A stretch of 64,000 bases of DNA from Psammoneis japonica (GCA_008632985.1 QPGO01000112.1:124001-188000), one strand, 5' to 3'. Positions 1-22,161 are shown, counted from the stretch's first letter. Numbers and translations: made by a program. Notes: generated from the sequence alone by a model not told the origin.

Positions 1-1
1 C

Positions 2-250
2 AAGTCGTTCAAGGACAAGAAGAAGATCAAGGCAAGCCAACACACGGACAACAACTGCGAGTTCTACAACGACGGGTGCTTGGCAGTCACGAAGCGAATC
101 ATGCCCAGGGAGGAATTTCTCTGCAGATGCAACTTGGACGAATCGGAGAAGAAGAAGAAGAAGAGGAAGGTGACGTCGGGTGCCATGAATCGGAAGAAGA
201 AATCGCGTCTGCTCCCCAAGTCGGGGGGGAGAAGCTCTGCATCTGGCTGA
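2..250 (+). CDS. 3' end of a putative SET-domain lysine methyltransferase (5'-truncated by window edge; TA-mutated)
   Basis: Frame 2 reads KSFKDKKKIKASQHTDNNCEFYNDGCLAVTKRIMPREEFLCRCNLDE...*. This resembles the SET C-terminal pattern NC...l.a.r.I.pgEEl..dY if the final Tyr has become Cys (TAC->TGC). A Lys-rich tail follows. Not in the ORF track because it has no start codon. Confidence 0.5.
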   Translation, partial: KSFKDKKKIKASQHTDNNCEFYNDGCLAVTKRIMPREEFLCRCNLDESEKKKKKRKVTSGAMNRKKKSRLLPKSGGRSSASG

Positions 251-379
251 ACGTTTGCCGTGTAGTGTGCTCTGTAAATTAGCAGCACAGTGTGTTGGTG
301 TTTTTCAGCAAAACTGTGGCATTGGTTGGAAAGGCGTAGCCCCAGTTGTGGTTCGAAAAATGGGAACGAGGAAGAACAG

Positions 380-503
380 AAAGTCGGCAAATTTGCGCAA
401 ATCTGGCAAATTGGCAGGTGCCTGCACAGTCGCCTGAGTGCAGAAAGTCAGCAAATTTATGCAAATTTAGCAAGTTATTTTGCACTGTCACAGTCGCCTG
501 AGA
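380..503. repeat. Two-copy ~64 bp tandem repeat
   Basis: aaagtcggcaaatttgcgcaaatctggcaa...cacagtcgcctgag at 380 and aaagtcagcaaatttatgcaaatttagcaa...cacagtcgcctgag at 444. Confidence 0.75.
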
Positions 504-1624
504 ATGGTCTCTTCCTCTAGAGAAAGGGGGATTGAATTGTTGCTCTTGCCCACTGCAGCACTCTTCAGGCAGAGAGACACGCAGAAGAACTCGTCATTTG
601 AGTTTGTCCTGCTGGAGATGCAGTGGCACTTGGTGGGGTTAAAAATGATGACATCACCAAGCCGGAGTGCAACGGAGATGCCTTCGGCAGGGAAGCAGAA
701 GTGCGCCACAATCCCGTCATTCATGGTGTGGCTGCCGGACGGAGGGACTCCCACCACAGTGACCACTGACAGGAAGAAGTCCTGGTCCCGATGGGCGTTG
801 AGGAAGACATTGCGCCCAGCCGCCAGAGAGGAGAAAATGCCATCTGACCGCACCAGGGATTTCCAGTTGTGAAACTTTTTGACACGAGCAATGCCCTTGA
901 GGATGGCATGGTCCACGCACTCATTGACAAGGTGCTCCATGCGTGAAAGAAGTCTGGTGAGGTGGTGAGTGTGTTGGTCGGCTGTGCCAGGCTGCTTGCA
1001 AGAAATTCGAGCGTCTCTCGTGGCAGCCAGGCCAATCATGGAATGCTTGCTCCTGTCCGTCTCCATGAAGGTAACGTGTTGTTTGCCGCGCACGGTGGAC
1101 TGGGCGGTGCAGCATTCTAGTGCTTCGAGCGCTCGGCACTGAGCAACTGGTTCTGCTGGGTTGGGGGAGCTGAACACCACAGCAGAATGCGGCAGCAGGG
1201 TGCAGGTGTTGTCGCAGCGGCAACCGTCCAAGCCAAAGAAAGGCTTCAGATTGAGCACAGGGTCACAGACGACCAGAGGAGCCAATTCGGCAAAGTCAAT
1301 GTCAGCAAGACAAGGTGGTGCAGGCTGAGTGTAGTCGCCGTTGTGAACCAGAGTGCGGTTGGCTACGCAGCGCATGGAGAGACTCTCAGTGGCGCACGGT
1401 GCGAGTGGAACAAGGCGAGCAATCTTGGATGTTTTTGCACTGGCACGGCTGCGGATTCGCCTGCGGCTGCGGTGGGCCTTGCGAAGTGGCGGTTGAGCCC
1501 TCAACACATTCTCGCATGTCCTGGTGCGCATTGACGATGCGGTGTTCGCAGAGAACGTGTGTGCAAACTTGCCGGCAAATGTTCCGCTGCTTGACACTGT
1601 CACTGTCATCTCAACAGTGCCCAA
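488..1624 (-). CDS. TET/JBP-like 2OG-Fe(II) dioxygenase (TA-mutated, transposon-associated)
   Basis: C-terminal DSBH-like motif order: FSSLAAGRNVFLNAHRD (HxD, 785-793), HFCFPAEGISVALRLGDVIIFNP, distal His in KCHCISSR. Spacing is typical of TET/JBP-type oxygenases. Start codon uncertain. Confidence 0.6.
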   Translation of the reverse strand: MGTVEMTVTVSSSGTFAGKFAHTFSANTASSMRTRTCENVLRAQPPLRKAHRSRRRIRSRASAKTSKIARLVPLAPCATESLSMRCVANRTLVHNGDYTQPAPPCLADIDFAELAPLVVCDPVLNLKPFFGLDGCRCDNTCTLLPHSAVVFSSPNPAEPVAQCRALEALECCTAQSTVRGKQHVTFMETDRSKHSMIGLAATRDARISCKQPGTADQHTHHLTRLLSRMEHLVNECVDHAILKGIARVKKFHNWKSLVRSDGIFSSLAAGRNVFLNAHRDQDFFLSVVTVVGVPPSGSHTMNDGIVAHFCFPAEGISVALRLGDVIIFNPTKCHCISSRTNSNDEFFCVSLCLKSAAVGKSNNSIPLSLEEETILRRL

Positions 1625-1783
1625 AGCAGAACTCTTTCAACAGGGACCGGCGGACTCTAGGGGAGTGGGGTCAAAACCTGATCGAGAGATGTGTCTGCTT
1701 TCCGTTGCCTCAAGAGCACCCAAAGCAAAACTCTGTTGACAGGGACCGGCAGACTCCAGGGGAGTGGGGTCGAGACCCAATCG
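1620..1783. repeat. Two ~65 bp direct repeats, 99 bp period
   Basis: cccaaagcagaactctttcaacagggaccggcggactctaggggagtggggtc at 1620 vs cccaaagcaaaactctgttgacagggaccggcagactccaggggagtggggtc at 1719. Confidence 0.85.
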
Positions 1784-2302
1784 CAAGAAGCATTTGCTTG
1801 TTGTCGGGCTGCGAGCTGCATGTCCCAAACCCCCACACTGTTGAGACCGGCTGTAACTCGATCGCGACAAGTGCTTGTCGTTGGTGGGACGACGCAGCGA
1901 GGCACGAGGCAGTTGCAACATGGTGTGTCTCAATTTGAAATGTGTTTCAAAATGTGATGACGGAAGTGTTGTCGCGTTGTTTTTGTCTCCGCGGAGGGAG
2001 GATCATCCCACGGCAATCTCAGTGCGAGTTCTCGCGTAGAAGTGCGTTGCGTGCCGTGCCAGCTCGTGCGTTTGAATTGCACGGACAAACAAGTGCGGTG
2101 ACGATGAGAAGCAGGCCGAGATTCAAAACAAATTTTATCACCCAAAGGCGTCTCATCATTTCAACGCATCTGCACATCTGTTTAAAATGACTCCATGCGT
2201 CGCTCCATGCACAGGTAGAGGCAGCACGCTGCGTTTGAAAATTTCGCGCGCACAGAGGGCGCGACGGCAATTTTACGCATTCTGCGCACGTCACAGTTTG
2301 GT

Positions 2303-3052
2303 TTGGAAACGCGACGTCTGGTCGAACCCACTGCAAGCAAGGTTGATGTTGCCACAAGGTTGGATGCGATGAACCATCGTTGCAGAAGTGTTGGGGAGTT
2401 TCATCTTCAAACGGCTCCGGACTCCACGTTCCAGAGCAGGCATGTCTCTGGAGACGGAAGCGGATCTTCGCACGGCGGCGAAGTTGGCTTCGCTTTGAGC
2501 AGCGAAGTGTTTTTGAACGAATGCCTTCTTGGCGTGAATCACACCTGCGATGCATCTGTCGACATGGGCGGGGGAGTTGCCGGACCCAGCATCGGGCTCA
2601 AGTTACTTCGTCGCCGTTGCACCATGGTGAGCATCGAGGCCGACCACGATCGTCACCAAGAGGCTGTACGTTGGGCTCATCGTGCTGGCCTTCGCTCAAA
2701 CGGCGGGTTAGAGTTGATCAACAAGTCATTCTTGGACGAGAGGCTGGCTCCTTTGTGGAAAAAGAAAGGACTCAAGGTGTTCTTCAACAACTGCAACTCC
2801 CGCATGGTCGATGACAAGAACACACAGCAGAAGGCAGAGGCGGTGCTTTCGAAGTTGTGTTGTGCTGGGACCGTGGTGGTGGTGCTAGATCCGCTGTTCG
2901 CGTCGCACGCGGGAGAGTGGATGTGCGAGTCCTTCACGGCGGATCACCATGATGGCGACTTTTTGTGGCACAGCGGAGACGTGAAACATCTCGTCTTCCA
3001 CAAGTGCACCAAGAAAGAGGAGACTTCTCAGTCAACCAGCCAGCACATGTGA
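2303..3052 (+). CDS. DOT1-like class I SAM-dependent methyltransferase (TA-mutated)
   Basis: Motifs occur in DOT1 order: SHGGE (YGE), SVDMGGGVAGP (motif I, FxDLGSGxG), VSIE (motif II), INKSFL (GDFL), VFFNNC (IFVNNF/Y), GTVVVVLDPL (GxRIVSSKPF), FLWHSG...VFHK (VSWT...YYLH). Confidence 0.55.
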   Translation: METRRLVEPTASKVDVATRLDAMNHRCRSVGEFHLQTAPDSTFQSRHVSGDGSGSSHGGEVGFALSSEVFLNECLLGVNHTCDASVDMGGGVAGPSIGLKLLRRRCTMVSIEADHDRHQEAVRWAHRAGLRSNGGLELINKSFLDERLAPLWKKKGLKVFFNNCNSRMVDDKNTQQKAEAVLSKLCCAGTVVVVLDPLFASHAGEWMCESFTADHHDGDFLWHSGDVKHLVFHKCTKKEETSQSTSQHM

Positions 3053-3325
3053 CGTCCCAGTCCGACACACTTGGAACGGAAGTGTTTGCCCGTCGCGAAA
3101 CAGCCAATTTTACTTGAGAACTCAACTGAACTGTTTTTTTGCTGTCACTGCACTGGACGTCACACGCCAGTTGCTCCACTCAATTCGCCATTGCTTCGCG
3201 GTGATGACAAGTTGTCATCGGAGATGGCACATGCTTGAAGAGACAGAGGAAAGCTGAGTTGCAATCGACACTCAGTTTGCCAAACATTTACAAATTTACA
3301 CTGCACCGGCAAAAAAAAAAACAAC

Positions 3326-4198
3326 TCAGTCTTCGTCGCTGTCCTGAAGCACCAAGTCGTCATCGACGTTCAGGTCAACTTCGCAGTTGAGCTCGACATC
3401 ATCGTCGGCCTCTTCTCCAGCTTCTTCTGCCGGAGCTCCAATGAGACGACAGAGTTCCACAGGCAACGACCCCTCGTAGAAGCAACTGTGAAGTAAGTTC
3501 TTGTTTTGGGCGCACCAACCGATGTGAAACTGACCACCTTCCTTCTGAAGCTCGGCAAGCGCCGCCTCGTTGCCGATCACTTCGGACCAAACAGCATCCT
3601 TCATCCAGAAGAAGTTGTCTTCAACGAAGACCTCGGCGTTGTTCTCAGGGTCATCGTTGAGCTGCTTTGCAGTGCACTTCCCGAGGCCGGGCACTTTGGC
3701 ATTGGTTGGGACTTCTTCAAGGAAGATGAAGAAGAGACACACGGCGCAGTTCTTGGCGTTCGTCTGCAACTCGCCTTTGTGAACCCACCTGCCAGCGCAA
3801 GGGTGGAATCCGACTTGAACCGCCCACGGAGTCCTGCTGCGAAGGTTGTCAAACAGAACCTTCTCCGACCAAACATTGGTCAAAAGGGGATTCTTGGCTT
3901 GGAGACGAAAAACGATGCCTTTCTTGCGGCCGACAGTGACGGTGGCGCAGCGCAGGAGGGCGTCCTCATCGGAATGGCTGCCATCGTCAGAACCAGCGGA
4001 TTTGGAAAGCTTGAGCCCGTGCTTGGCAAGGCAGTCTTCCGGTCTAAGGTCGTCGTCGGTCAAGCCGTTGGTCTTGCGGGGCGGACTTGGTTTCTTCAAC
4101 AGAGCATCAGAAAACTTCATCTTTGCCTTCTTCTGTTTGGTTTCGGCGACTTTGGCTTTCGCAGCCGGGGAGGTCGTTGTGTTTCTTTTGTGTGCCAT
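3326..4198 (-). CDS. Unknown protein, Lys-rich N-terminus and acidic C-terminus (probable element cargo)
   Basis: About 290 codons from ATG 4198 (MAHKRNTTTSPAAKAK...) with a globular-looking core and a D/E-rich tail. No family recognised. Confidence 0.45.
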   Translation of the reverse strand: MAHKRNTTTSPAAKAKVAETKQKKAKMKFSDALLKKPSPPRKTNGLTDDDLRPEDCLAKHGLKLSKSAGSDDGSHSDEDALLRCATVTVGRKKGIVFRLQAKNPLLTNVWSEKVLFDNLRSRTPWAVQVGFHPCAGRWVHKGELQTNAKNCAVCLFFIFLEEVPTNAKVPGLGKCTAKQLNDDPENNAEVFVEDNFFWMKDAVWSEVIGNEAALAELQKEGGQFHIGWCAQNKNLLHSCFYEGSLPVELCRLIGAPAEEAGEEADDDVELNCEVDLNVDDDLVLQDSDED

Positions 4199-4743
4199 CG
4201 AATCAGTCAGAGAGAAATTGTGGGAACAAAAAGTGCGATCGTTCAGAAGTGCCAAGAAAGACCCAGCAGAGCTGCGTGCATCATGCCAAGGAGAACTGGC
4301 AATGTCAGCAACTAGATCCAAACACGTCGAACTGCAACAAGGCAACCTTCCAGGTGTCAGCACTTGCAAGTGGTGTGTGGATTCAATTTGAACAAAACAG
4401 GTGCAAGGATCGGAGCACGCAAAGTCACACCAAGTTTGCTGAAAATGCACAAAATCACGTGCAATTCCGTCCGCGCTTCGTGTGCATTTCAGCCGTTGCT
4501 GCCGCGCGGCCATCGCACACGAAATCTAGTCGCCAAACGGTCGACGCCATCGCTGTCACTGCTGCACCGGCAGTTAGCTAAGGTGGGCCCATCACCCATT
4601 TGGAGGATCCGCGCGCACTTTGGAAACACGAATGACGTCAATCGTGTTGTCATTGCCACATGACTGGCTCAACTGCCCCGCCACTCGTTAAAGCGTGATT
4701 CTGTGGAATTTGCGCAAAGCTGCGCCCACCACCAAGATTGCCG

Positions 4744-4844
4744 AAACAACTTGAACAAGATCCAAATCTCACCCCATGGAATGTTCAGAGCAGATGGTCA
4801 AAACAACTTGAACAAGATCCAAATCTCATCCCATGGGATGTTCA
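4744..4844. repeat. Tandem duplication, 57 bp period
   Basis: aaacaacttgaacaagatccaaatctca(c/t)cccatgg(a/g)atgttca at 4744 and 4801. Confidence 0.85.
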
Positions 4845-5035
4845 ACGTCGACGAAACCAAGCAGGATGTCATGCGTCTGGTGCGAAGAAGGACGTGGGAG
4901 GAACGCACACGTCACTCTTCCGTCGATGTGAAAGAGGCACACTTTCGTCTCACTTTTTTGTGACAGAACCTTTGCGCAAAGGGAGACGAAAAGCATCCAA
5001 CTGCGGTGATTGGGCCACACCGATCGTAGTTCTCA

Positions 5036-8000
5036 GTTCTCACAGTGACCTGGTGACGCAGGTTGTGAGATGACGCACAAGCTCAGCTGCGGTGACTGGA
5101 CGACACCAGCCACAGCTCTCACAGAGACCTGATCGCACAGGTTGTGAGAACACGACACAACGCTGCGGTGATCGGACAGCACCGACGCAAAACAAAACCA
5201 AAATTCTGCATTTATGGTGCTGCTGCGCTTCCACCCTGCAACTCCGGCAACAAGCCAACCCACACCCCCAGTGCACTAAAAGTGCGGCAGGAGCAAACAG
5301 TGGTCAGCCGAGATCGGCGTCACCCGAGGGTGACGCCGCGCCAAAATGACTTGCGATGGTTCTGGTGCCTCGTGCAGCCAAACGTTTGGCTTCGTGCATG
5401 CTTGATTTAAAGACTGGTTTGAACATGGCCAACCAGTTTCGAATCCGGTGAGTAGAGTGTGACAGGTGTTCTTCTACCGAATCAAGGAGGAGCGCCTTGT
5501 CTCTCGCAAGACAATCGTCTGTACGAGAACAAATGGCCTTGACCTCTGCTTCTGCGTCTCGTCTTTGAGACGACTTCCTCGTTTCCGAATCGTGTCCGTG
5601 TACAGCGTCGTTGTGAGCGTCCCAGAGGTCCCACCACTGCTCCCATGTGAAATTCCCAACAGTTGCAGCCCAATCCAGCCGTTTCTGTTGATCTGAGAGA
5701 GTCCGACAAATGCCGCTCGACGAAAGGCAAGAGGTTTGCGTCGCATTCCACTGGACAGAAAAACGGCCATTAAACAACTGACGCCAACCTGTTTCCCCTT
5801 GGGAATGAAATGCGGGCACGACGCTGTGATGAAATTGTTCCGAGCACAAAAGCTCGCCTTGAAACCATGCTTCAACAGCCAAAATTGTCAAGTCTCGTAA
5901 GGAAGGAGACGTGTGAATGTCATCGCACTTCTTGCGCAATCCTTGTAAAAATTTTCTGCGCCAGGCTTCATTGTGAGGGCAACGGAGAATGTGATCTCTA
6001 TCTTCCATGGGGTCCTGACAGTGAATGCAACAGTCCGGACGTGTCGGATTGTGTCTGTGTGCAATCTTGTTGGTGGGCAGAAGATCTTGAACCAGCTTGA
6101 CGGCACTGACTTTTCGACGAATGTTTCGTGACATCAATTTCGAATGAACGTCCCAATCAATCGATGCGTGTGCTTCGTCGGACCAACTGCATTTCTCTTT
6201 CATGTGCTGAACCAGTGCGGGACTTGACGCCTGACATCTGACAACCGGCTTGCATTTGGAAGAAACAGTGGCTCCTTGAAGAAGCAGGTTTGCTCGGCAA
6301 TGAGGCATGCGGGGAGCAGCAAGAGCATCGCCCGTAAATCGACCTTGGAATTGTCCAGCGAGTCTGTCGGCACGCATGTTCAACTTCGCCGCTTGAGAGA
6401 GAGAGTCAATGGGAAGGACATCGTCTTGGTGTCCCTTCACCCAGTGAATCTCGACTGTGGGACACAACAGTTCATCAGTGCGTGCTTCTGACAGCTGTCT
6501 TGGGGAATGGAAGACCTCATTGACAATGTCCCAATCCGGAGAGAGAGCACCAGCAATGTGAAAACGCCAGTGGAAGTCTCCTTGGATCTCCTCCTCGTCG
6601 GCAGGATGAGGAATCACCTGGAAATTCGAGATGGTGCGAATGAGAGCGGAATTGTCGCAATGCAAATCGGCGCCGCTGACCTGTGTGGAACAATGGTCTG
6701 ACAATCGGATCAGAAAACGGAGAAAAGACAGTAGACCGCATGCCTCCGCACGACAAGATGATGGGCGAAAACCGAAAACTGGACCAGCACAATCCACAAG
6801 AGGAACCCCGTCGACCGCAATCGTCCACCCGAATGCACCTTTGAAATGGAGGACCGAACCGTCGCCAGCTGCTGAAACCTTGTGGGCAACGAGGAGCTCA
6901 GCGATTTCAAACACAGACCGATGCAAGTGCAATTCTTTGAACAGAGCAGATTCCCACCGAGGAAGAGACCGCAGCACAGCCAAGAAATCATTCGGGACGG
7001 GAGGGACTGTCGGCAAGGATGCTGGAGAACCGAGTGACTTGATCCGCCACAAACCGGTTGCAGTCGCATCCACTGGCACAGGGGAAGCGGCTGGGGAAAG
7101 ATCTGGAACGTTTTCCAGAGCGGCAAGAGTCTCCGCACAACCTTGGTGCACTGGGAAAATCTCGAAACCCGAATCGCCACGAATGTGCAAGCAATCCTCG
7201 GAGGATTCGTAACACGCGACATGTGTCATGCACATTTCCGTAGCTGGTGCAACCCATTGACCTAAAGGGTGTCGTAGATCGAGCGAGTCTGGTTTGCAAA
7301 ACAAGGAACAGGCTCGACGCCACTGTTTCCATGCCCGAGCGGATGGACGTTGTTGTTCGACAGGATTCAGAGTGCTGCGACTGCTGAGAAGGAACGATCG
7401 GCCGTTCACTTTAAAGGGATCGAGCGAAAAACCATCCGGAGAGGCAACATCCGACAGAGTCAAAACATTTGGATAGAGACGACAGCAGTTGACCCACCGC
7501 ATCTCACGATCACTGAACGCCTGGGATTGAAGCACAACGTCCATGATGTGTTGGTCATTGTCTCGCTGGAGTGGAAGCACTCCAGCACAATCACAATCGA
7601 TGGTGGCATCGATCCGGGCCAAGAATGAACGTAAGGACACAAACCATTTCGATTCGGAATGAGGGAGCTTGGCATGGACGTCCTGAAGAAAACTCACACC
7701 TGTGCCAAGCTGCAACTGAATCCACGATGCAGCGATTCGCGACAACACCTGAGGTTGCCCAGAGCCCCGCCAGTGGGTGAGAAACTGTAGAACCTGCGCT
7801 GCACCCTGTTCCACGTCTAAAGAGCTGAAACCACGGACAGCACCGACGCAGTTCGTCAAGCAACTAATTCACTTGGCTGCGGTGACTGGACGACACCAGT
7901 CGCAGCTCTCACAGTGACCTGATTGCACAGGTTGTGAGCAAACAACACAGCGCTGCACCTCGCAATGTAGGTTGTGAGATGACGCACAAGCTCAGCTGCG

Positions 8001-8350
8001 GTGACTGGATGACACCAGTCGCAGCTCTCACAGAGACCTGATCGCACAGGTTGTGAGAACACGACACAACGCTGCGGTGATCGGGTGGCACCGACGCAGT
8101 TCGTCAAGCAACCAATTGACTCGGCTGTGGTGACTGGACAGCACCAGTTGCAGTGCTCACAGCGACCTGATTGCACAGGTTGTGAGAAGACGACACAGCG
8201 CTGCGGTGAACAGATGGCACCGACGCGGTTCGTTGATCAACTGGACAGAACCACTGCGGCGACTGGACGACACCAGTCGCAGTGCTGCAGGTGGTGAGAA
8301 AACACACATCGCTGTGGTGATTGGACAGCACCGATCGCAGCTTCACGGTG
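5036..8350. repeat. Degenerate ~120-130 bp minisatellite array (5036-5189 and 7834-8350) split by a LINE insertion
   Basis: Recurring gctgcggtgactggacgacaccag...ctcacag.gacctgat.gcacaggttgtgaga...gcaccgacgca. 5060-5189 is nearly identical to 7969-8098. Confidence 0.85.
5190..7833 (-). mobile_element. 5'-truncated non-LTR retrotransposon (RT C-terminal region + RNase H + Cys/His knuckle) with 17 bp TSD
   Basis: ORF 5304-7859 carries RNase H motifs (AGDGS, SSCRAEACG, HCDN, HWVKGHQD, NMRADRLA) and CIHC...EDRDHILRC. An exact direct repeat cggacagcaccgacgca lies at 5173-5189 and 7834-7850. Homologous to the element at 37-45 kb. Confidence 0.88.
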
Positions 8351-8427
8351 ATCGCACTGAAAAAACAACCATTTTTGCTGAGTGACTTCTTGAAATTTGT
8401 TGAGTTGAAGCATCAGCTTAAATTAAA

Positions 8428-11400
8428 ATGGACGAGGCCAACTCCCGTGTTTGCAATGCAATCAACAGAAAGTTTGAGATGCTTTGTCTGCACAGAGACG
8501 GAGAATTTAGACCACACCCATGTTCAGTCTGTGACGTTCTGCTGAAACCTAGAGAAGTTTGCCACTTGCCACTCGAAACATTGGAGTCAGCAAGAAACTT
8601 GCTCACCCCTTCAGACTGGAACAGCGCATCTGATTGTCTCAAGTCCTGCCACACTGTAGAGCATGAAGATGCTGATTGGATCAAAGACCTGCTGCTTTCT
8701 CCCCGCACCCAATGCGCAGCACAGGAAGACAGACGACGCGTCGACGGATTCACTTGCTGCAGCGAATGCCGAAGAAGCCTGGGAAGAGCCGTCACGCCAA
8801 TGTGCGCGACAGCGAACAACTGCTGTTTCGGCACCCCACCGCACAAACTGTTGTCTCTGACCGAAGTAGAGTTGGCAATGCTCACACCAGTGAAAACATG
8901 CGGGCGCTGCTTCAGTTGCCTTGGCGGCAAACAGAAGAAGCTTCAGGGAAGTCTGACATGCTACAAAGTCAAGATGCAAAGCATCGCAAGAGCTGTTGTG
9001 CACTTCGACGCACTGAATTTACATCAGAATGTGATTGCACTGATGACTGGAAAGATGACTCCGGAGCAAAGACAACTTGCACGTTCAAAGAACAGAATTA
9101 GGACGCACTGCATGCTGCGGGTGATGGAATGGCTGTTGCACCATGACCAAGAGTGGGTGTGCCAACAGACAAATCTAGACGAAGTCAGGCACAATCTGCG
9201 GAATCCCGCACTTGTCGATGGCACCAGCGAAGAAGAAGGAGAAAATGCGAACATTGAGACCTCAGAGTCATTTCATGTTTGCTTTCCTGATGGAACCATG
9301 TCTCCTGCGACCGGTGGTCAGCGCAACCTGGACTGCTTCAAAGATCTTGCACATGAAGCTGCTGCCAATGGATTTGATTTAGAGGTGCAAGCACAGTTGT
9401 CTGAAGAATCTGCGAGTGATTTCAAAGGCAACAACTTCATCAATGCGTGTCTGCTGCAGTTTCCTTTTGGCAGAGGAGGAATCAATGAGACGAGAATGAA
9501 GAAAGACGGAAGTCTCACAGATGGCACCAACCTTGCACACTGTGCCGACCACTTGGCATGGATTTCCCAGCCTCACTTCCACGAGCAGCTCTTTGTGTTA
9601 ACATGCTGCAACTTGACAATGAAGCAAAGGATGCCACAGAGTGCAGGGTGGAAAGTCAGGGACAAGAATCAGGCTGCACAGTTTGCAAACGAACCAACAG
9701 TGGACGACGTGGGTGGAGCTGTTTGTGATCGCAACTTGGGCGAGAGAAGAGATTGTGGACTCGGGCACCACTTTTTGCACGCACTCGACGTTGTGTCTGC
9801 GTCTCTGCCACACAGTGACGAAGCAGCAAAGAAAATGAGGAGAAATGCCGAAACTCATCAGCATCATTTTGGTCAGGGTGGCATTTTCTTAACCGTCAGT
9901 CCGGACGATGCAAATTCGTTTCTTGTGCAACTGCACTCGGGTGTCATCCTGGACCCAAACGAAGATGTGACACAACTGATGGACGAAATTCTTGCCAGCA
10001 GGGCTGAGCAACGTGATGAACTGCGTCTAAAGTTTCCCGGTCTAACAGCCTTTGTGTTCGAGTGCTTGTTTGACATTGCAATGGAAGAGGTGGTGGGTTG
10101 GGATCTGAGTGCCAACCAACCAAGAGAAAACTTTAACTTCTGCATTGGCAGGCCAGCCGCATTTTTAGCTGCAGTTGAGGAGCAGGGACGTCCAACAGCA
10201 CACGGACACATGCAGATCTGGTTTGCATCGATCAACAATGCAAGAGAGAAACTGCATTCGCCAATGAGACAGATCCGACGCGAAGGTGCTGAGCACCTTG
10301 CCAACATGGTTCAGAAGATCTGCAGCATGGAATTAATCTGCAGCGAGGACTTCAGCACTGGCGCGTTGCATGAAGCATTCGACCATGACTGCACAGTGCC
10401 AAAAATGTGTCGCACCTCTCCAAAAGTGGCAGACAACCAACAGCTAAGAAACCTGAGGCATGAAGACGGCCAGCAGTCGAAGAACGGAATGTTTGCTTGT
10501 TGTCATCACTGCACCAAGCACTGGACAAACGTCGAGTTTGTAGAAAGCTTTTTACAGTCACGGCACCGTGTGCCTGGCCTGACTCGCCATCCAGACAACC
10601 ATGCAAAGCGACTAAAAGCAATGTGTGTGCAACACCAGCGAAGTGGTCCGCAAGGGGCAACAGAGGCACACATGCCGGACGCAGCTTACAACCATCACAT
10701 GCACGTTACGAAGTCGTGTTTTCCCAAATGCGCAGAGTTGCGTAAAATGCGCAAAAAAACCCCACACGAGGAACTGGACATGCAGTCAAGGAAAAGGAAA
10801 CGAGAGGAGCTCAAACCAGGTGACTGCCGTCACAGGCAACCAGCTGCTTCATGTCCAAATAATTTGGCAAGGAACGCAGATGACACTCAGATGAAGTGGT
10901 TCAGCTGGGATGGAACTTTTGCATGTCGGTGCGTGAAGGAAGTTGTTCCGAAGAGGAGAAAGTGCGATGCTTTTCAAAATGTGTCGAGCCCTGCAACAAG
11001 CAGATCAAAACTGACATGCAACACAAACATTGCTTTGTTGATGCCTGGACCGTCCACTCAACACACGATTGAGCACATCCTAAAAGACACCCAGAAAGAT
11101 GACACTGCATCGTACGACGAAGTGCTTCAAACTACGAACAGGGTGGCGACGGAATTACGGAAACACGCATCTGATGCATCGGAAGCAATCAGACGTCTCA
11201 CATGGGGTGCTTGCTCGCATGACAAGACGAACATCATTGGACCACCACTTGCGTCTTGCATGACAAGGAACGGAAGCCGTTTCATCGAATCTCATTTGAC
11301 CGCATGGTGCCCCTTGAAAGACATTGTCAGCACACTGGAAAGAGACGAAGTGTCTGCGACTGCAGCCCATTTTGGCGATGCACCGTTCTTCCAATGCCAG

Positions 11401-14076
11401 GCCTTGCACTGCCCATGTCGTCCAACAGCACTGGAGAATCTCAGTCCGTTTGCATTTTTCAGTGAATGCAAAGTTCTTCGCAACACAAGGAAAAACGAAC
11501 ACGGCATGATGATGTTCGACAACAGAGCGCACAGGCACCCGTCTCACAATTCAACGAAGAATGAGTTTCTTCAAGGTGTCAGACAGCGACAGCAACCGCG
11601 ATTGTCAAAAGCACTTCAGTGTGATTTTCCTGATGCAGCCAAGTTTGGCAGTTGCCTCATAGATCCGCAGCAACCAACAACACTGGACAAAGAATTGCAC
11701 TGCAAGTTGGCATTGGCCTTGTTTGCGCCTTACAGAACAATGACGGAACTCAAACCAATGACCCGTGCACACCTGCATGAATTCCAACTCTCCGCAGTAG
11801 CCGGTGTTGTTGCAGAGGAAAACTTGAACTTCTTGCAGAACCCACAGGATGCTAAGTCCAACTGCCTTCGTCTCAAAAGTGCATCTGACGATCTGCAAAG
11901 AAAGACGGAGCAATTTAGACCTGCTGACGTTGCGTTTGACTGTTGCGAAAGTGACGAGGAAGAAGGTCTTTCAGGCGCCGTTCAGGGTCAACTGCTGGAT
12001 GCACTCTTGGAAGAAATGGCAGAGCAGCCAGAAGACGATGACATTGGGTTGAGCGACCAAGCAGTTGTTCCTGCACATTTGAGCGGCAAACATGCAAGAC
12101 AGAAAGGTTCACACATGGGTGGTTGCAAATGCTTGGCAGACACGCACACTGACCCACCAAACGAGGAAAGCCAGGTTGATGAACGACAACTTTTTGAGAA
12201 TCTAGAGGGCGGCGATGACACCGACGAGGAAGACCAGAATGAAGGAGTGCAACAACACATCCACAGCAGACCACTGTCAAGAGACGACATTGTTCGAGTG
12301 ACACTGACTAGAATGCAAAGAACAAGAAGGTTGTTTGAGGACATGACAGGTTTGGAAGAACACGTCGATGTACGTCAAGCAAACGGATCTGCAGCAAGCA
12401 TCGTAGACTGGGCTAGGAAAGCAAGACTGGACAGGCAACAGCAGCGTGCCTTTGAAATTCTAGCAGGAACCTTTGTGCTCACTTGCTGCCAAGACGCTCT
12501 TCAAGATGAGACGTCACACAATGGACTCAACAGGAGAAATGGCAGACACGAATTTGCAACAAACCTTCGCCGATTGAAGAAACTCGTGGAAGTGCAAAGA
12601 CGCAGAACGTTGCAACTTGTGTGTTTTTTACATGGTGCAGGTGGAAGTGGCAAATCAACCACAATGGACCTCGTCGTGGAGTGCGGAAGAGAGCATTGCT
12701 CGCTCATTGAGCAGCCGTTCACAACAAGCACAATCAGAGTGACTGCACTGACCAGAGTGGCTGCGACTGTTCTCAAAGGGGACACAATCCACCAAGTTGC
12801 ATGCCTCATGAGAAGAAAGCAAACAACCGAAGAGCAAATTGAAGCATGGTCAGACACGAGACTTTTGGTGGTGGACGAGATTTCTTTTGCAAGCAAGAGA
12901 GAACTAGAAAAACTCCATGAGAATTTAACAGCATTGAAGAGCGAACCAAGCAAGCCGCACGGTGGCATCAACATTGTTCTCGCAGGTGACCTCAGGCAAC
13001 TAGAGCCAGTTGGAAAAGGAGTGAAACCACCACACAAAGATGCATGTCCCGAGTTTCACGAGTGGATCAACTGCTGCATGGAACTTCGTGGTGCACACAG
13101 GTTCAAAGACGATCCATCATGGGGAAAACTGCTCAAGAGATTCCGCACTGGCAAGATTGCAGTTGACGACATGGAGCACATCAACGAACGAGCAGTTCAG
13201 AATGAAGATGATCTGCCCAGTGACCTCCGCTGTGCTGTGTGCGCAAATGAGGACAGAGATGCAATTGACACTGGCCTGTTCGAAAAAAGAGCAGAAACAC
13301 TGCACAGAAGAGATGGAGATGTCCTTGACTCAATGTTGATTTTCAGTGACGACTTGCAGGTGCAGAATGGCACGAGACTCTGCCAACCATTTCCGGTTTG
13401 CAACAGCTTCTGGAACAACTGTGGTGAAGGAGACGTTGTCATGCAATCAGGAAGAATGGATCCAGTCTTACGAATTTACAGAAGATGCAGAGTCATGACA
13501 CCTTTCAACGAAAATGTGGCAAACGGTCAAGCAAACGGAACGCAAGCCACTGTTGACAAGGTCGTTCTCAAACCAGGACAGGAACCAAGACAGTGACTTT
13601 AGACAACAACATTGGCATTCCTGCTGCACTTGCAGTCAGGTGGACCATGTTGCATTGGAACACTGCAACAAAAGCATCGACCCCGCGAAGTTTTTAGTTG
13701 AGCCAAAAACAAATGCTTTCAGGGCTTGCATCGCCAAGCCCAGCCTAATTTTAGAAGAAGGCGACAACAAAGGCACACTTTCCAACTGAAGGCAACCCAG
13801 CTGCCGTTTGTCATCAACAATGCCACTGCAGGGCACAAACTGCAAGGGAGTGGAGTCCCGCAGTTGTTTGTACACTCTTGGAGCTGCACTCAGAATTGGG
13901 TGCATGTTGTGCTCTCCAGAGTAAAGACCAGAGAAGGGCTGTTCATGCGAAAGCCACTGAGCAAGGACCTGCGAAAATGCAAGGTCCCAGAAGGCTACGA
14001 AGCCTTGACAAGACTCATGAAGGAGAGAAGCGCCACGCATTTTTCTCAGCAACAGTGCGCAGAAATGTCAATGTAG
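8428..14076 (+). mobile_element. Helitron-like Rep (HUH) / PIF1 helicase gene; frameshifts near 13595-13790; TA-mutated
   Basis: 1722-aa ORF plus shifted tail. Rep motifs: GGIFLTVSPDD, AVEEQGRPTAHGHMQIW (E.Q.R...HxH), HTIEHILK (YxxxYxxK with Y->H). PIF1 motifs: GAGGSGKS, VVDEIS, GGINIVLAGDLRQLEPV, HRFKDD, ANG, ATAGHKLQG, HVVLSRV. Termini not identified. Confidence 0.92.
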
Positions 14077-14222
14077 TGCGCAAACATTGGATTAGGATGC
14101 TCAACCACTGTGCAACTGTTTGGCGACCCCAACCGTAAAAATGCGGAAATTTCGTAAAATAAAATGTTTCGATTAGATCAGCACATTGCGCAGAAATCTG
14201 CACATGCGTCACACAACGTCGA

Positions 14223-14796
14223 ATGGATTTTAACCAACAAACCAAGAAACGCGAACGCAACCGTCACAGAAAACGCAGCAACAGAGAAAACATGGATTTG
14301 CAACAACAAACAAAGAAGGCAGACGAGCCAAAGAAAACTGGTGAGGACAAGAAAAAGGTGCAGACACATGCGGAACTTCTTCAGTCATTGATGAACAGGA
14401 AGACGAAGAGGAGATTACCTTGGAAGAAGCAAGAGCGGCGTTTGACCTTGCTCGGGAAATTTTGATGTCACTTCTGCACTTGTGCAAGACAACACGACAG
14501 TGGACAGTCATCATGTGGAAACAACAGTCACGCCCAAGGATGACTCAACCATGGAGGAGCTAAAGGCAGCATGTGCAGCGGTGATTCCACAGCGGTCGGG
14601 GAGATTTTTCACCGAGGAGGAGATGGCGGAGCAGGAGAAGGAGCAAGCAAAGTCCCTTCAGAAGAAGCATGGCCAGAAGAATGGAATTGAGCAAATTGCA
14701 AACAACCATTTGGTGAAGACAACCGCATCAATGCGCAAAATGCACGCACATGGACTTTCACTTGAGCCGCCGCGGATTGAGTGTGGCCACAAATGA
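14223..14796 (+). other. Possible frameshifted K/E-rich ORF downstream of the helicase
   Basis: Overlapping charged ORFs 14223-14465 and 14482-14796 within the TA-depleted block. No family recognised. Confidence 0.25.
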
Positions 14797-16024
14797 GGAC
14801 AACCTTTGCAAAGAAACTGCAACAATGCGCAAATTTCGCACATTTCCACATTCACTCTCAATCCAACGCAGCTTGCCTTGGACAACATCAACATGCACAA
14901 CTGGACAACATCAACACACACAGACAGCCTCATGAAACCTCACAGAAGACAGAACGGTCAGAAGCAAAACAACCAGCACCACGCACTGGCGCATGTTAGT
15001 CATGTCGCGTGGGTCGCGCAAAAGTGCGCACCGAAATGACCGTCATGTGTTGCAATTAATTCGAATGCCCGGCGCAAAATGCAGCAAAATGATTGGTGCA
15101 GGCAATCGTCATGGCTCTGTTTTCTGACAGCCCTGCTTGTGCACAGAAACGCGTGGCGAGGTCCTGAGCATTTTCGATGGCACAGAGCCTTGCCACGGGT
15201 TTCTGTGCCATCTGCGACAAAGCTGCGTAGATTTGCGCTGAAATAAATCTGAGTGCCGCATGTCTGCGGTAAGATCTGCGTGAAAAGAACTCGAAACCTG
15301 TCCACCGAGCCGGCGTCATGTGCCGGCCGTCGTGAAAAATGTGTTGTGTCTGAGAAAGAGTTCGTCAGGGCCGGCGAACAACACACCTCTACGATGCGAT
15401 TGGTGCAAAATCTACGTAAATGCACAGAAACCAACATGTGGCTTCTGTGCAAATTAGAGCTCGTGAAAAATAAGCAGGGACAGCAGCGAGGGCGGCAATC
15501 CAAAATCTTTCGGTTTCAGACTTCGATCTAGAGAGTTCCACCTAAAAGAGGAGGAACCAATTACTACGGATTTTTTTGCGCGGTGCGCGGAGGCCGTTTT
15601 TTTTCCCTCGACCTATCGCCAACAACCCACCATCACATCATCGGCGCTGCACCCCGACAGAGCCGCGTAGATGTTATTTCTTCGCCGTTGAGGCAGAACA
15701 ACCATTGCGGGTGATTTCCACCCTTTCCAACGCCATTTCTTATTTCATATTTATGCTTACTGTCGTTGCTGCTGTTTGTTCTGCGGCAATTGGCTCACAT
15801 GCATAAGGTTGCTATTGTTGCTGCTGTTGCAGATAATATTCTGGCTATGAATCACCAATGTGGGGGGCCAACGAGAAGAAGTATGCTTTGTTTAGGTGTC
15901 AATGTAAGTTACATTGTTATCTATCGCGTTGTTCTTTTTTACTCAATGCATTTCATGTAATGCCTTGGCATTACTTACTAACACGAGCACATTATCTGTC
16001 TTACTATTGTTTGCTTGTAGAGTC

Positions 16025-16284
16025 AGAATTCATTGAGAGTATACCGTTATGCCGTGGCAGCATCACAGCATTACGTTTTTCCCGGATTGAGGCGCCGGGG
16101 CCGATGCCAAAGGAATGGTGAGGGTACGCACACCAAGAATTTCATTGAGAGCATACCATTGTGCCGTGGTAGCATCACAGCATTACTTTTTTCTCGGATT
16201 TTTGGTAGCATCACAGTGTTACTTTTTTCTCGGATTGAGGCACCGGTGCCGATGCTAAAGGAATGGTGAGGGCACACACACCAA
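16025..16284. repeat. ~111 bp tandem duplication with an internal ~35 bp sub-duplication, 3' of the piggyBac ORF
   Basis: agaattcattgagag...ggaatggtgaggg.ac.cacaccaa at 16025 and 16136. Confidence 0.9.
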
Positions 16285-16445: not shown

Positions 16446-19400
16446 CTACCTGTTCCTGATATGACCTAGGTGATCGTAATCTGGCCAGCACACTTTGCAA
16501 ATTGCTTCACCACATTTCCTACAGCCGTACAAAGATGTACGACTTCCTTTTCTCAAGGTAGCGTAATCGGCATCTGGCATCGTCAATCTGGCCTTCCTTA
16601 TGCAATCAATGCAGTCTTTGCTATGGTTCAGTATCTTGATTGCTTTCTTGTCGTGCACAATATCTTCTTCCCGTACAAGTCTCTTTCTCCCTTTCTTTGG
16701 CCGATGAGTCTTTCCATGCGTGAGGCCGTGCTTGCAGAAAAAGCATTCTCCACAGCCACAAGGTACGTACGGCTTCTGTCTGACCCATTTTGGCTTCGTG
16801 GTGGGGTCGTTTATGTTTGTCCAATCCATGCTAATGCCTTTGTTGATACACTGTATTCCCAGATCCATCATCCACTTGAACTTCCATCGTGTGGTCTTGG
16901 CATATTTTCAAAGGGGTGTCCCACTGTTGAGAGCTTTTTTGTGATCACTTTCATTGCGTGAGTTACCCCGTCCATGCAGTAGTACATGATGCGGAGGTAG
17001 TATCTGTTTCCCTTCAAGCTGATAGACCAGTCAGCAGTCTCCCTGTCTTCCCTGTCGACAGCACGCATGAACTTGATATAGTCGGGGATGACCGCATGGG
17101 ACGAGACTGGAACTCGGCTGTGCTCGTCGTTGTCCCACCGCAACGTTTTGTGATCCCCAGGTACGCCCACCATGTGGTTGTGCAACACGCCAACCTGTTT
17201 TCTGTCTTTCCAAGTTGTTGCCTGTACTACAAACCCAGCCGAATTGCTCTTGTCTCCTTGCACAGTCTTCTGAGCCCAGCGTAACCACCCACGAGGCACC
17301 TTGGACAATGCTCCGGATGACAGTTTGTGGAAGGGGAAGTCGGTTGCTGTTCGTGACTTCTTTTTCGTCATCTTCACGGTGCCCACCACCAACATGCCAT
17401 ACGTGTCATACACCAGTTTCATGAGCTGTTCCGATGTGTAGAAATTGTCGGTGTACAGCTTGCGTCCTTTTCCCGACAACACTAGTTCGGGGTCCATAGC
17501 CAACAACCTTGAAACAACTTCGAGTGGCGATGCATCATCATTGTCCTTGCCAGTGTAGACATAAAATGCATATAGATATCCGGTTTCTGCGCAGCACAAT
17601 GCCCACACTTTTATGCCGTGTTTGATGGGTTTAGCGGGCATGTATTGAACAAACTTTACAGCCCTTCCCTTGTAGAGAATCATGGACTCATCAACCGTTA
17701 GCTTCTCTCCAATCACCCACCCGGCCCTTAGCCTTTTGCCAACTTTGTTCACAAATGGGATTATCTTCTGCAATGGGTGCCATCTTGAAGTGCCGTGCCT
17801 TGGCAACTTTCTGTTGTCGACGAAATGGATGAATCTTCGAATCTGGGTGAAGGCATTTCGAGACATGGAGTGCTGAATCCATGGCACTGCCAAGTCATGA
17901 GTTTCCATCCACAGGAGGTCTTGCCACTGGAGTTTCATTGCAGCCAGAACAAACAAAACTCCAAACCAAGCAAGGAGGAACCCAGGAGTGACTTGGATCC
18001 AAGGCTTTTTTTTGTCCTTGTGTCTCTTCCTGCTGTCAGGGTGGTCCTCCTCACATGGAACCAACCTGGCTCTCCTCTTGGGCTCTTCCTCAAACTCATC
18101 CCCAAGCTCATCATCTGAGTTGCAGCCTTTGCTGCTGCCAACAGACCAGTTGGAAGAATCGCAAGAGGAGACAGAGCTCTCGTCATCAGAAACCATCCAA
18201 AAGCTCCCGTGCACCCCAAACGATGAGTCAGTGTCACTGGAGTGAGAGGACTGGTCGCTGGATTCAGAGGCGCTGCTGCTGCTGCTGCTGCACTTGTCAG
18301 GGTCAAAAATTGATCCACCAAAGAGGGAGTCTCCATCGTCCATAAAAAAGCCCGGCTGCCTTGCTCCATCAAATCAAAATCCAGCTCCAACTGATCACAA
18401 TCAGCCACAATCTCACAGTTGGTTGCATGCCCATGCTCCTCATCTTGCTCATTCTGATCTTTAATTTGTTGCCACTCTTGCTCAGTCACAGGCCTGACCC
18501 ACTCTTCGTTGGCACAAAAGTTGGTCTCCTTGGCAACCTCCTCTAAGTCGTCAACCGTGACAAAGAAGAGAAACAAGTCAACAAGAGACTTGCAGGCTTG
18601 CTTCACAGCCCATGATGGGCCACAAACACCCCCTCCACCAGGGCCTGCATAAGATCCAGACCATCCAGGTTCCCAGTTAGAGGACCCCTCATTCTCCCAC
18701 CCAGGTGGAACAGGCCTTTCAAGCTCGGAATCCAGCAGCTCTCTCTTCTTTCTCTTGGCAGCCCAAACATCAGATAGAAGCTCCATTCCCTTGCCTTTGT
18801 CCACAAATTTGAAGAGGCGATTGTCATTCACCACATCAGCTTGTGCCTTGGCATCAACAATGGAAGAGTGAGCTTCAGGAAGCACCTCCTTGTTCTTCAC
18901 ATGACACCAAATTTCTCCCAAGCTGTAGCCAACAACTTTGGATGTCTTGGCATTCAGGGCACAGGACTTGCAGTGCTCAATTGTCTTCCTTGGGTCACAA
19001 AAGTGCTTCAGCCCTTCAGGCATGGACAAGGTTTTGCGATGGGTGTCTTCAGCAAGACGAAACATGCACTCGCAATCACCTCCCTTGCCTCCCCATGCCG
19101 CCAGAATCCCAACCTTGGAGCCTGCATCCAACTTGTCTTCTACAAACTTGCAAAATCTTGGCCAAACCAATTCCATTTTATCAGCATTGGCCATGCGGGG
19201 ATCAGTGAGCTTGAGTTTGTGCGACTCCTGGGAGGCCCTCTCCATCTCGTCGGTCCACTTGGTTCCTTCTGGAGGCTTGATGTGCTCGTCAAATTCGCCG
19301 AGTGTAGACTTGTCATTTGGATCTACTGCAACAGCTGAGAGCTGCAGCATGCCACACTTCTTCCCTCCATGCTCCACATCAACATGAAAAAGTGCACATC

Positions 19401-19636
19401 GTCCTGCAATCCAATCATCATGGGCCACAGAATTTGTTTGACGAGGCGCTCTCTGAGCTGGTGCCGGCACGTCATCAGGTTGTTCAGCAGAGGCCAAGGG
19501 AGCAACGCCGGACTCCAAATCAGCATCCTCCACAGATGTGTCATCGGAGCTGAACGCAAGCATGGAGATGTCCATTGTCTCCATGATGTTGCCGACGCTC
19601 ATGTCACCAACACCGTGAAAGACGGTTGTTTTGCAC
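16446..19636 (-). mobile_element. piggyBac-family transposase with N-terminal DEDDh exonuclease domain and C-terminal Cys-rich domain; frameshifts near 18345 and 16870
   Basis: piggyBac motifs: DLFLFFVT...KETN, MSRNAF.QIRRFIHF, VDESM, YMPAKPIKHGIK, TDNFYTS, MRAVDREDR. C-terminal CxxC clusters at 16446-16871. N-terminal VDVEHGG...GDC...AHSSIVDA (DEDDh). Likely splice acceptor ttttcag at ~19637. TIR/TTAA ends not identified. Confidence 0.88.
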
Positions 19637-22018: not shown

Positions 22019-22161
22019 ATGGAGAACTGAAGTTTCAGTTTGATGCACGCATCCGGCAATCGATTCACCTAGCGGTTATGGCAATGAAGTTGTGGAGGAA
22101 GTCAAGCCAGTCTCCTGCTCCCATCATTAAACTAATAGCCGCATCGTATCCAGCAAAATTA

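Follow-up and report, generated by a model that had tools for sequence, protein, structure and literature searches.

The window, a 64,000-nucleotide stretch of Psammoneis japonica DNA (GCA_008632985.1 QPGO01000112.1:124001-188000), opens with 4.5 kb packed with four long ORFs in mixed orientation, upstream of a Helitron Rep-helicase (RepHel) pseudogene (Table 1). Among these ORFs, a relic of a DOT1-family gene lies 5' of the RepHel within one unbroken hypermutated block. Three of the four were correctly placed by the original prediction, made from the sequence; the remaining one, of no known family, reaches 4513 rather than 4198, the latter position being an internal Met.

Table 1. Features of the hypermutated block, in window coordinates
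Feature	Coordinates	Strand	Basis or remark
ORF fragment, 82 aa, SET-like motif pair	2-250	+	open at window start
ORF of 378 aa, oxygenase-like	488-1624	-	length beyond shuffles, motifs
Tandem repeat, 99 bp, 1.8 copies	1620-1799		between oxygenase-like ORF and DOT1-like gene
DOT1-family SAM methyltransferase relic	2369-3091	+	homology, profile, structure model
ORF of 395 aa, basic N-terminal part and acidic tail	3326-4513	-	length beyond shuffles
Tandem array, left part, ~120-130 bp units	5033-5189		cut by LINE-like insertion
LINE-like (non-LTR retrotransposon) fragment, secondary insertion	5190-7834	-	16-bp target-site duplication
Tandem array, right part	7851-8340		directly upstream of RepHel start codon
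Helitron Rep-helicase pseudogene	8428-14076	+	Pfam matches above cut-offs
Hairpin-rich segment, 357 bp	15128-15484		absent from part of other copies
Right edge of TpA-depleted, high-depth block	15500-15560		TA o/e and depth

The DOT1-like ORF (2303-3052, plus strand, 249 aa) has its probable start at Met23, position 2369. A phmmer search of 1.84 billion representative proteins returned 12 relatives at E<=1e-3, which makes this family a rare one; the closest of them, P0001 (E 7e-71, 55% identity), is a stand-alone 244-aa protein known from one 10.7-kb contig only. Because the ORF aligns end to end and without introns to residues 1-243 of P0001, it is not a fragment, and the likeness continues past an in-frame TGA (3050-3052) through 13 further codons, up to 3091. 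A second methyltransferase-like domain is present in some of the relatives; P0002, P0004 and P0005 are two-domain proteins of 606-640 aa.

Although the ORF itself has no Pfam match, three of its 12 relatives reach the 23-bit cut-off of the Pfam DOT1 family (PF08123; 29.6, 23.5 and 23.0 bits), with two more below the cut-off and seven lacking a DOT1 row. Of the 38 PDB sequences that the family profile matched at E<=1, 20 belong to DOT1 enzymes, with 9ne1 (E 5e-8) ranking first overall, and the profile's alignment to human DOT1L spans the GE..F, DxGxGxG, VE, DF and FxNN motifs. The window ORF carries the full set of DOT1 signature motifs (GE..F, DxGxGxG, an acidic residue after strand 2, DF and FxNN); the residue that follows NN is Cys, where five of ten relatives have Phe or Tyr. 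When its AF2 model (pLDDT 79, pTM 0.78) was compared with known structures, Foldseek ranks 1-10 were all Dot1/DOT1L (E 1.0e-8 to 8.8e-8, TMq 0.55-0.63) and VIA-align ranks 1-30 were all DOT1 (Z 16.8-19.9, the next family scoring 16.7), while a BFVD search yielded generic methyltransferases only, at TM-scores below those of the PDB DOT1 matches. By profile and structure model, then, the ORF is a DOT1-family SAM methyltransferase in both fold and family, as had been predicted. It resembles the DOT1/DOT1L H3K79 methyltransferases in fold, SAM-binding motifs and active-site motifs, yet structural alignment leaves it only 11-18% identical to solved DOT1 chains. Its predicted size of ~230 aa is close to that of 9ne1, a small bacterial DOT1L-like protein (227 aa), and of Trypanosoma brucei DOT1A (257 aa), and it has no counterpart of the long extension with which human and yeast Dot1 bind nucleosomes and DNA. 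Unlike the known enzymes, the window copy is mutationally dead and multi-copy.

In the C-terminal third of the 378-aa ORF, an HxD (residues 278-280; 785-793), a distal His (residue 334; 623-625) and a G-D-x3-F stretch resemble the motifs of 2OG/Fe(II) oxygenases, so that the HxD...H pair is present as predicted; the expected 2-oxoglutarate-binding Arg site, 13 residues past the distal His, is a Cys. A pattern of this motif written after seeing the sequence recurred in 4 of 400 shuffle replicates in its relaxed form (R or C) and in 0 of 400 in its strict form. The narrower assignment to TET/JBP found no backing: neither the whole ORF nor its C-terminal 193 aa matched any Pfam family at E<=10, Tet_JBP (PF12851) included, phmmer gave no PDB match at E<=10, two database searches retrieved no relatives, and the single-sequence AF2 model, for which there were no relatives to align, is unusable (pLDDT 33). 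The SET assignment fared similarly, with neither a SET (PF00856) row in Pfam at E<=10 nor a PDB match for the 82-aa fragment. A relaxed version of the C-terminal SET motif pair (NHS..PNC-like, then EEL.Y.Y-like), likewise formulated with the sequence in view, has one match in the window and none in 400 shuffle replicates. By motif, the two ORFs are thus candidates for an oxygenase and for the C-terminus of a SET-type methyltransferase, respectively; contigs of DNA run X1 extend upstream of window base 3, beyond the SET-like fragment, where an N-terminal SET core would be expected. The 395-aa ORF has no relative in Pfam, the PDB or viral contigs. An antisense ORF of 269 aa is found at 3506-4315. 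The sole motif match among the viral contigs was a wrong-frame chance match.

The RepHel consists of a main ORF (8428-13596), with the helicase C-terminus in another frame (13702-14076), and Pfam places a Rep (HUH) domain fused to a PIF1-type helicase within it (Helitron_like_N 39.5 bits, PIF1 52.4, AAA_30 53.5, DUF6570 37.0; all above cut-offs). Between the gene cluster and the RepHel, the predicted LINE insertion lies between two identical 16-bp direct repeats (5174-5189 and 7835-7850), and its excision restores the unit of the tandem array that it splits. This shows that cluster and RepHel were contiguous before the insertion, the distance from 4198 to the RepHel ATG then being about 1.6 kb, as claimed. 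The insert has a weak zf-RVT match, under the Pfam cut-off, and a relative, 36-58% identical, at 42225-44775 of the window. Near the right edge of the block, the hairpin-rich segment contains inverted repeats and is possibly a small non-autonomous insertion; the joint from 15127 to 15485 that bypasses it has a depth of 480.6 in run X1. Inspection of 4500-5340 and 13500-16100, together with an inverted-repeat scan, gave no convincing Helitron end (5'-TC, 3' hairpin and CTRR), the left end lies outside the window, and neither the cluster nor the RepHel has a second copy within it.

All 31 bins of 500 bp over 1-15500 have a TA o/e of 0.00-0.32, as against 0.63-0.76 in the next three, the step falling between 15001-15500 (0.32) and 15501-16000 (0.76). 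The depletion of TpA is accompanied by an excess of TpG/CpA, CG o/e stays at 0.48-1.24 across the block, and by composition no host-like DNA separates the ORFs of the cluster, in agreement with the signature originally described. Stops on both strands number 46 per kb in 1-5276 versus 80 per kb in host-like DNA. Tyr is nearly absent from all ORFs and mostly replaced by Cys or His, another feature that had been anticipated: its share is 0-0.3% in the long ORFs as against 1.4-4.1% in the proteins related to the DOT1-like ORF, and it amounts to 5 of 1722 residues in the RepHel and none of 249 in the DOT1-like ORF, where Cys or His stands in place of six of the eight Tyr that P0001 has at aligned positions. 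This loss of Tyr shows that the window copy is mutationally dead; judged by its sequence, the DOT1-like gene in particular is not an intact, potentially active gene. Differences between copies, as seen in run X1 contigs, are transitions at 401 of 442 places. Since the LINE-like insert has the same TA signature and CpG level as the surrounding block, the TA/CpG signature does not mark one element, and the preserved CpG, previously put forward as a possible sign of anti-silencing, is unspecific.

The loss of TA matches the TpA-to-TpG/CpA hypermutation by the host that a 2026 preprint describes for Bigelowiella natans (bioRxiv 10.64898/2026.01.13.699255), where integrated giant-virus and virophage regions are hypermutated at TpA and where transposase and reverse-transcriptase domains are enriched among TpA-poor coding sequences. 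Both systems have mobile DNA that is depleted in TpA and contains TpG/CpA in excess; the main text of that preprint mentions 'Helitron', 'DOT1', 'methyltransferase' and 'dioxygenase' 0 times each.

Depth was summed over short contigs of run X1, which may be the sample from which the window derives; these sums, which are not copy numbers, are 2744-4297 over 1-4806 and 2359-5280 over 8011-15486, making cluster and RepHel similar to each other and about 30-45x deeper than the unique flank contig on 15560-16000 (about 101). The LINE-like part reaches 371-636, versus thousands on either side. Many variant contigs of 85-99% likeness cover the block, and single near-identical contigs reach a depth of about 1069 at 3366-3658, within the cluster, and of about 1024 at 9548-9965, within the RepHel. 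From this similar high depth it follows that the cluster genes are multi-copy, rather than the single-copy host loci that would have counted against the original prediction, and that they were probably co-amplified with the Helitron.

The explanation that we propose, and consider about evenly balanced between right and wrong, is that the cluster represents accessory genes of the RepHel repeat unit, that is, of a Helitron family carrying chromatin-modifying genes. Bases 1 to about 15500 would form one block of repeated mobile DNA, hypermutated by the host at TpA, in which, once the later LINE-like insertion is removed, four former genes would precede the broken RepHel: a ~230-aa DOT1-type methyltransferase, a 2OG/Fe(II) oxygenase candidate, a SET-type candidate and one gene without a known family. 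In intact copies, the DOT1-like enzyme may have methylated a nucleosomal histone lysine (H3K79-like) around the element, opposing heterochromatin, and the oxygenase may have removed or altered a methyl mark. It is in this sense that we infer the cargo status of the cluster, the substrates of its enzymes and its anti-silencing role.

At the level of single genes, it might be objected that only the DOT1-like gene is real and that the other three ORFs (the oxygenase-like one, the SET-like one and that of 395 aa) are frames opened by the loss of TpA, a change that removes TAA and TAG codons without being able to generate a stop. The reduced density of stops would fit this, the 269-aa antisense ORF illustrates that long spurious frames occur, and the three ORFs had neither homologue nor profile match in the searches made. 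Nevertheless, in 300 dinucleotide-preserving shuffles of 1-5276, which keep its TA-poor content, only 2 contained a frame of at least 378 codons and none a frame of at least 395 (observed frames, 382 and 399 codons for the 378-aa and 395-aa ORFs), and frames of at least 240 codons averaged 0.33 as opposed to the four observed; the oxygenase and SET motif sets are also rare in shuffles, as reported above. Because both long ORFs exceed what TA-poor sequence yields by chance, they are probably former genes, and we regard their spurious origin as improbable.

Concerning the block as a whole, the cluster could belong to another multi-copy element, be it a transposon or an endogenous viral or virophage-like piece, that came to abut the Helitron by nested or neighbouring insertion, with host TpA hypermutation giving any foreign DNA the same appearance. 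The TA/CpG signature is indeed shared by the LINE-like insert, which is clearly a separate element, no Helitron 5' end was located, a tandem array separates cluster and RepHel, integrated DNA of giant viruses and virophages bears the same mutation signature in Bigelowiella natans, and Mimiviridae have DOT1 and SMYD homologues according to the accessible part of 10.1101/2021.11.30.470311. This possibility is nonetheless somewhat unlikely: depth is about equal in cluster and RepHel but differs about tenfold in the LINE-like element, P0001 and the oxygenase-like and 395-aa ORFs have no relatives in 2.9 million viral contigs, and the BFVD matches argue in the same direction. A host origin, with the block being a segmentally or tandemly duplicated region that includes a Helitron and its genes being former host genes or functionless captures, seems quite improbable. 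Gene capture by Helitrons is well known, and a single domain could have been taken from two-domain proteins such as P0002, P0004 and P0005; against this, the full-length, intronless match to stand-alone P0001 is not that of a fragment, four long ORFs fill 4.5 kb, and high depth with variant contigs fits dispersed, diverging copies.

The proposed accessory genes of a Helitron have partial precedents, since transposon-borne TET/JBP genes, including those of fungal Helitrons, and SET genes are already in print. According to the accessible text of Kojima 2025 (PMC12730594), 11 lineages of fungal DNA transposons carry TET/JBP genes, Helitron1 and Helitron2 among them, for which the same purpose, escape from epigenetic silencing, has been proposed. 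These elements and the window have in common a RepHel and a neighbouring ORF with 2OG/Fe(II)-oxygenase-like motifs; they differ in that the window ORF has no Tet_JBP match or relatives, the host is not a fungus, and a DOT1-like, perhaps also a SET-like, gene lies alongside, of which that text reports none. The same text cites Kojima and Jurka 2014 for HarbingerS and MuDR transposons of oomycetes (Phytophthora) that carry SET histone methyltransferase genes; there, too, a histone methyltransferase gene travels with a DNA transposon, whereas here the confirmed enzyme is of DOT1 type, the SET-like piece is a putative one of 82 aa at the window edge, and the neighbouring element is a Helitron, of another superfamily. 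We found no DOT1-like gene in a comparable transposon block in the literature.

The remains of a DOT1-like gene and of two less certain enzyme genes beside a Helitron hint that this element was formerly equipped with chromatin-modifying enzymes of its own. In its fullest form, this idea would have an autonomous Helitron lineage, in a protist that hypermutates foreign DNA at TpA, carrying SET-type and DOT1-type lysine methyltransferase genes and a TET/JBP-like oxygenase gene as a counter-defence cassette acting on chromatin and DNA marks, which we hold to be fairly improbable. If true, such a cassette would keep the chromatin of the element open, or remove a mark by which silencing or the TpA mutator is recruited, and it would be the first known case of a DOT1-type enzyme among transposon cargo and, outside fungi, of a multi-enzyme epigenetic cassette in a Helitron.

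The DOT1-like ORF of the cluster is confirmed as a member of the DOT1 family, an assignment made in the original prediction and now borne out by its relatives, by a family profile compared with the PDB, and by a predicted structure and the fold searches run with it. The window ORF itself had no match in direct Pfam or PDB sequence searches; a phmmer search of 1.84 billion representative proteins retrieved 12 relatives at E≤1e-3, six of them at E≤1e-10, the best being P0001, a protein of 244 aa (55% identity, E 7e-71). Pfam DOT1 reaches its gathering score in three of these 12 proteins and falls below it in two, the remaining seven having no DOT1 row. At E≤1 the profile of the family alignment, A1, matched 38 PDB sequences, 20 of which are DOT1 enzymes, headed by the bacterial DOT1L-like enzyme 9ne1 (E 5e-8) and including human DOT1L (about 6e-5); the GE..F, DxGxGxG, VE, DF and FxNN motifs all lie inside the profile alignment to the human protein. 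With an AF2 model generated from A1 (pLDDT 79, pTM 0.78), Foldseek ranks 1–10 are Dot1/DOT1L without exception, and VIA-align ranks 1–30 are all DOT1 chains from human, yeast, trypanosome and bacteria (Z 16.8–19.9), followed by the next family at Z 16.7; among viral structures, generic methyltransferases are the sole matches.

The gene probably starts at Met23 (position 2369) and aligns with residues 1–243 of P0001, the similarity passing through the TGA at 3050–3052. The database search with P0001 returned that protein alone, with one member on one contig of 10692 bases, and no relative of it was found in viral contigs; its sole metagenome-scan match, L001, was rejected as a weak similarity over 40 residues with nothing else related. 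Three further relatives of the window ORF (P0002, P0004 and P0005; 606–640 aa) combine a DOT1-like domain with a conserved C-terminal region, which has weak matches to methyltransferases and a second SAM-type motif rich in glycine, and constitute a rare two-domain family without Pfam assignment.

For the oxygenase-like ORF, the proposed TET/JBP identity drew no support from Pfam, the PDB, the protein index or motifs. The ORF matches no Pfam family at E≤10 and no PDB entry (phmmer), and among 5.8 billion proteins searched by word index (near-length class) it has no relative at E≤0.01 and, for residues 185–378, none at E≤10; its single-sequence AF2 model (pLDDT 33) is too low in confidence for a fold search. 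It contains HxD at residues 278–280, His 334 and G-D-x3-F before that histidine, with Cys at the expected 2-oxoglutarate-binding Arg position, motifs that presumably resemble those of animal TET enzymes. A relaxed oxygenase pattern has a single occurrence in the window and turns up in 4 of 400 shuffle replicates (62 kb), a stricter one in none of 400; because both were composed after viewing the sequence, they lend weak support to the ORF as a candidate 2OG/Fe(II) oxygenase. A viral-contig scan with it reported one “relative” without a locus, and an exact 36-base pattern from it had no viral-contig match; L002, a phage-like contig picked up by a degenerate oxygenase motif, was discarded as a chance match, the motif lying in a non-ORF frame.

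The SET call could not be confirmed, the fragment having 82 aa inside the window and neither a Pfam nor a PDB match. A relaxed C-terminal SET motif pair, again composed after viewing the sequence, is present a single time in the window and absent from all 400 shuffle replicates; contigs of X1, a DNA sequencing run matching the window, extend upstream of base 3. The fourth ORF had no relevant match in Pfam, the PDB or viral contigs, and its extent had been misplaced (it is actually 3326–4513, 395 aa), the predicted positions of the other three being correct.

Positions of features in the window, with dinucleotide ratios and X1 contig depth
Feature	Position	Strand	TpA o/e	CpG o/e	Summed X1 depth
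SET-like fragment	2–250	+
Oxygenase-like ORF	488–1624	−
DOT1-like ORF	2303–3052	+
Unknown ORF	3326–4513	−
Segment with the cluster	1–4806				2744–4297
Bin with tandem array					6608
LINE-like insert	5190–7834				371–636
RepHel main ORF	8428–13596	+
Helicase C-terminus, other frame	13702–14076
Segment with RepHel	8011–15486				2359–5280
One unique flank contig (depth)					101
Hairpin segment	15128–15484
Second LINE-like ORF copy	42225–44775	+
10-bp palindrome	392–401, 4709–4718, 4971–4980
Mobile blocks	1–15500, 18001–20000, 30001–50000, 60001–64000		0.02–0.29
Lowest-TpA stretches (2-kb steps)	1–14000, 18001–20000, 32001–50000, 62001–64000		0.02–0.18
Host-like stretches (2-kb steps)	22001–30000, 50001–60000		0.44–0.78
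Strong CpG depletion	32–36 kb, 42–48 kb, 62–64 kb			0.05–0.29
Left end, for comparison	1–8000			0.74–1.02

The base composition of the window bears on how these frames are to be read. It is eukaryotic DNA in which mobile blocks are interspersed with host-like stretches, the blocks being poor in TpA in a dinucleotide scan, with an excess of TpG and CpA at every low-TpA stretch; some blocks are also strongly depleted in CpG. This TpA loss with TpG/CpA excess matches the pattern reported for Bigelowiella natans in a 2026 preprint, where mutations in integrated viral DNA fall almost only at TpA, producing TpG or CpA, and TpA-poor coding sequences are enriched for transposon domains (10.64898/2026.01.13.699255); in the host of the window, too, foreign DNA seems to be mutated at this dinucleotide. 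Since the process destroys TAA and TAG and never makes a stop from a sense codon, long open frames are cheap here: stops on both strands number 46 per kb in 1–5276 versus 80 per kb in host-like DNA. Spurious long frames are present in several frames of 1–5276, for example a 269-aa ORF (3506–4315, +) on the strand opposite the 395-aa ORF; in such TpA-poor DNA, gene finders would report too many ORFs and profile searches too few, with Tyr replaced by Cys or His. Four frames of at least 240 codons are nevertheless observed in 1–5276 versus a mean of 0.33 per dinucleotide-preserving shuffle (n=300), and the longest shuffled frame reached 378 codons in 2 of 300 replicates and 395 codons in none; because shuffles rarely or never attain such lengths, the 378-aa and 395-aa ORFs are probably former genes.

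The copy of the block in the window is a dead relic. Tyrosine is nearly absent from its products (0/249 residues in the DOT1-like ORF, 1/378 in the oxygenase-like ORF, 1/395 in the unknown ORF, 2/851 in the LINE-like ORF and 5/1722 in RepHel, the Helitron Rep-helicase gene) and makes up 1.4–4.1% of the relatives of the DOT1-like ORF. At six of the eight Tyr positions of P0001 covered by the alignment, the window ORF has Cys or His, in agreement with the predicted Tyr-to-Cys/His change. The RepHel frame breaks at 13596 and the conserved helicase C-terminus resumes in another frame, and RepHel is therefore a pseudogene even apart from its Tyr loss.

Whether cluster and RepHel belong to one element is not a matter that composition can settle. 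In 500-bp bins, TA o/e is ≤0.32 in all 31 bins of 1–15500 and 0.63–0.76 in the next three, and CpG o/e in 1–15500 is 0.48–1.24, so that the ORFs are indeed TA-depleted and CG-retaining without host-like DNA between them; as the mark of a single element, the signature fails, because the LINE-like insert, a separate element, has TA/CpG values equal to those of the surrounding block. That insert is a true secondary insertion: an exact 16-bp repeat lies on both of its flanks, and its excision restores one unit of a tandem array of 120–130 bp units directly upstream of the RepHel ATG. Before it arrived, cluster and RepHel were contiguous, the ATG lying ~1.25 kb from 4513 and ~1.6 kb from 4198, the latter being the distance originally proposed after LINE removal. 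A single contig (depth 63) joins 5276 to 7537; it was rejected as the empty site, as the target duplication sets the insert boundaries. Nine contigs end loosely at 5217, which was rejected as an element boundary: compared by eye, their consensus agrees with window 5187–5216 at 21 of 30 letters, a case of local divergence. The second, diverged LINE-like ORF copy has 36–58% protein identity to ORF 5304–7859.

Abundance argues for a common unit. X1 is a single run that may derive from the window's own sample, and 4155 of its short contigs were placed on 1–16000 at ≥85% likeness. The cluster is multi-copy, at roughly 30–45 times the flank and about the abundance of RepHel, summed contig depth not being equivalent to copy number; single near-identical contigs reach depths of 1069 (3366–3658) and 1024 (9548–9965), and of the 442 places at which copies differ, 401 show transitions. 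By summed depth the LINE-like element has about a tenth of this abundance, which, together with the roughly equal depth of cluster and RepHel, argues for their co-amplification as one unit, the depths being summed over short contigs. No contig bridging cluster and RepHel was present among those of X1, and the 64-kb window holds no second copy of either.

The right end of the block lies near 15500–15560; no Helitron ends were recognised by inspection of 4500–5340 and 13500–16100 with an inverted-repeat scan. Close to this end lies a segment of 357 bp in which several hairpins share one motif. X1 contigs of depth about 480 skip it, so that part of the other copies lack it; it may be a small insertion of non-autonomous type or a 3' module that varies within the element. 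The 10-bp palindrome TTTGCGCAAA recurs in cluster spacers, and the octamer TGCGCAAA has eight of its ten window occurrences in 1–16000 and two in the remaining 48 kb. This enrichment was considered insufficient for linking cluster and RepHel; the octamer could, like the palindrome, serve the element in regulation or protein binding.

Some retrotransposons carry DNA methyltransferases, and in yeast overexpression of the founding Dot1 disrupts silencing, which offers a testable anti-silencing mechanism for DOT1-type cargo. TET/JBP genes are reported aboard 11 lineages of fungal DNA transposons, Helitron1 and Helitron2 included, and SET genes in oomycete Harbinger and MuDR elements (PMC12730594); a survey lists 823 gene models fusing chromatin and transposon domains and describes DOT1 homologues in Mimiviridae (10.1101/2021.11.30.470311), and lineage-specific links of H3K79 methylation to repression extend to B. 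natans (10.1101/2025.03.17.643675). A description of DOT1-type transposon cargo, Helitron cargo included, was not found in the literature as judged by titles and abstracts, and could exist in print.

In summary, the original observation holds for the most part, one of its enzyme calls is proven, and a Helitron cassette of chromatin-modifying cargo genes is a plausible hypothesis. With Tyr codons and the majority of stops removed by TpA loss, routine annotation misses such genes and calls false long ORFs. Since the host apparently mutates foreign DNA at TpA, the locus lets one ask whether the cargo interacts with that defence. Epigenetic enzymes encoded by transposons testify directly to an arms race against host silencing, and a DOT1-type enzyme, if it is indeed carried as multi-copy mobile cargo, would add a new histone-writer class to those already known from transposons.
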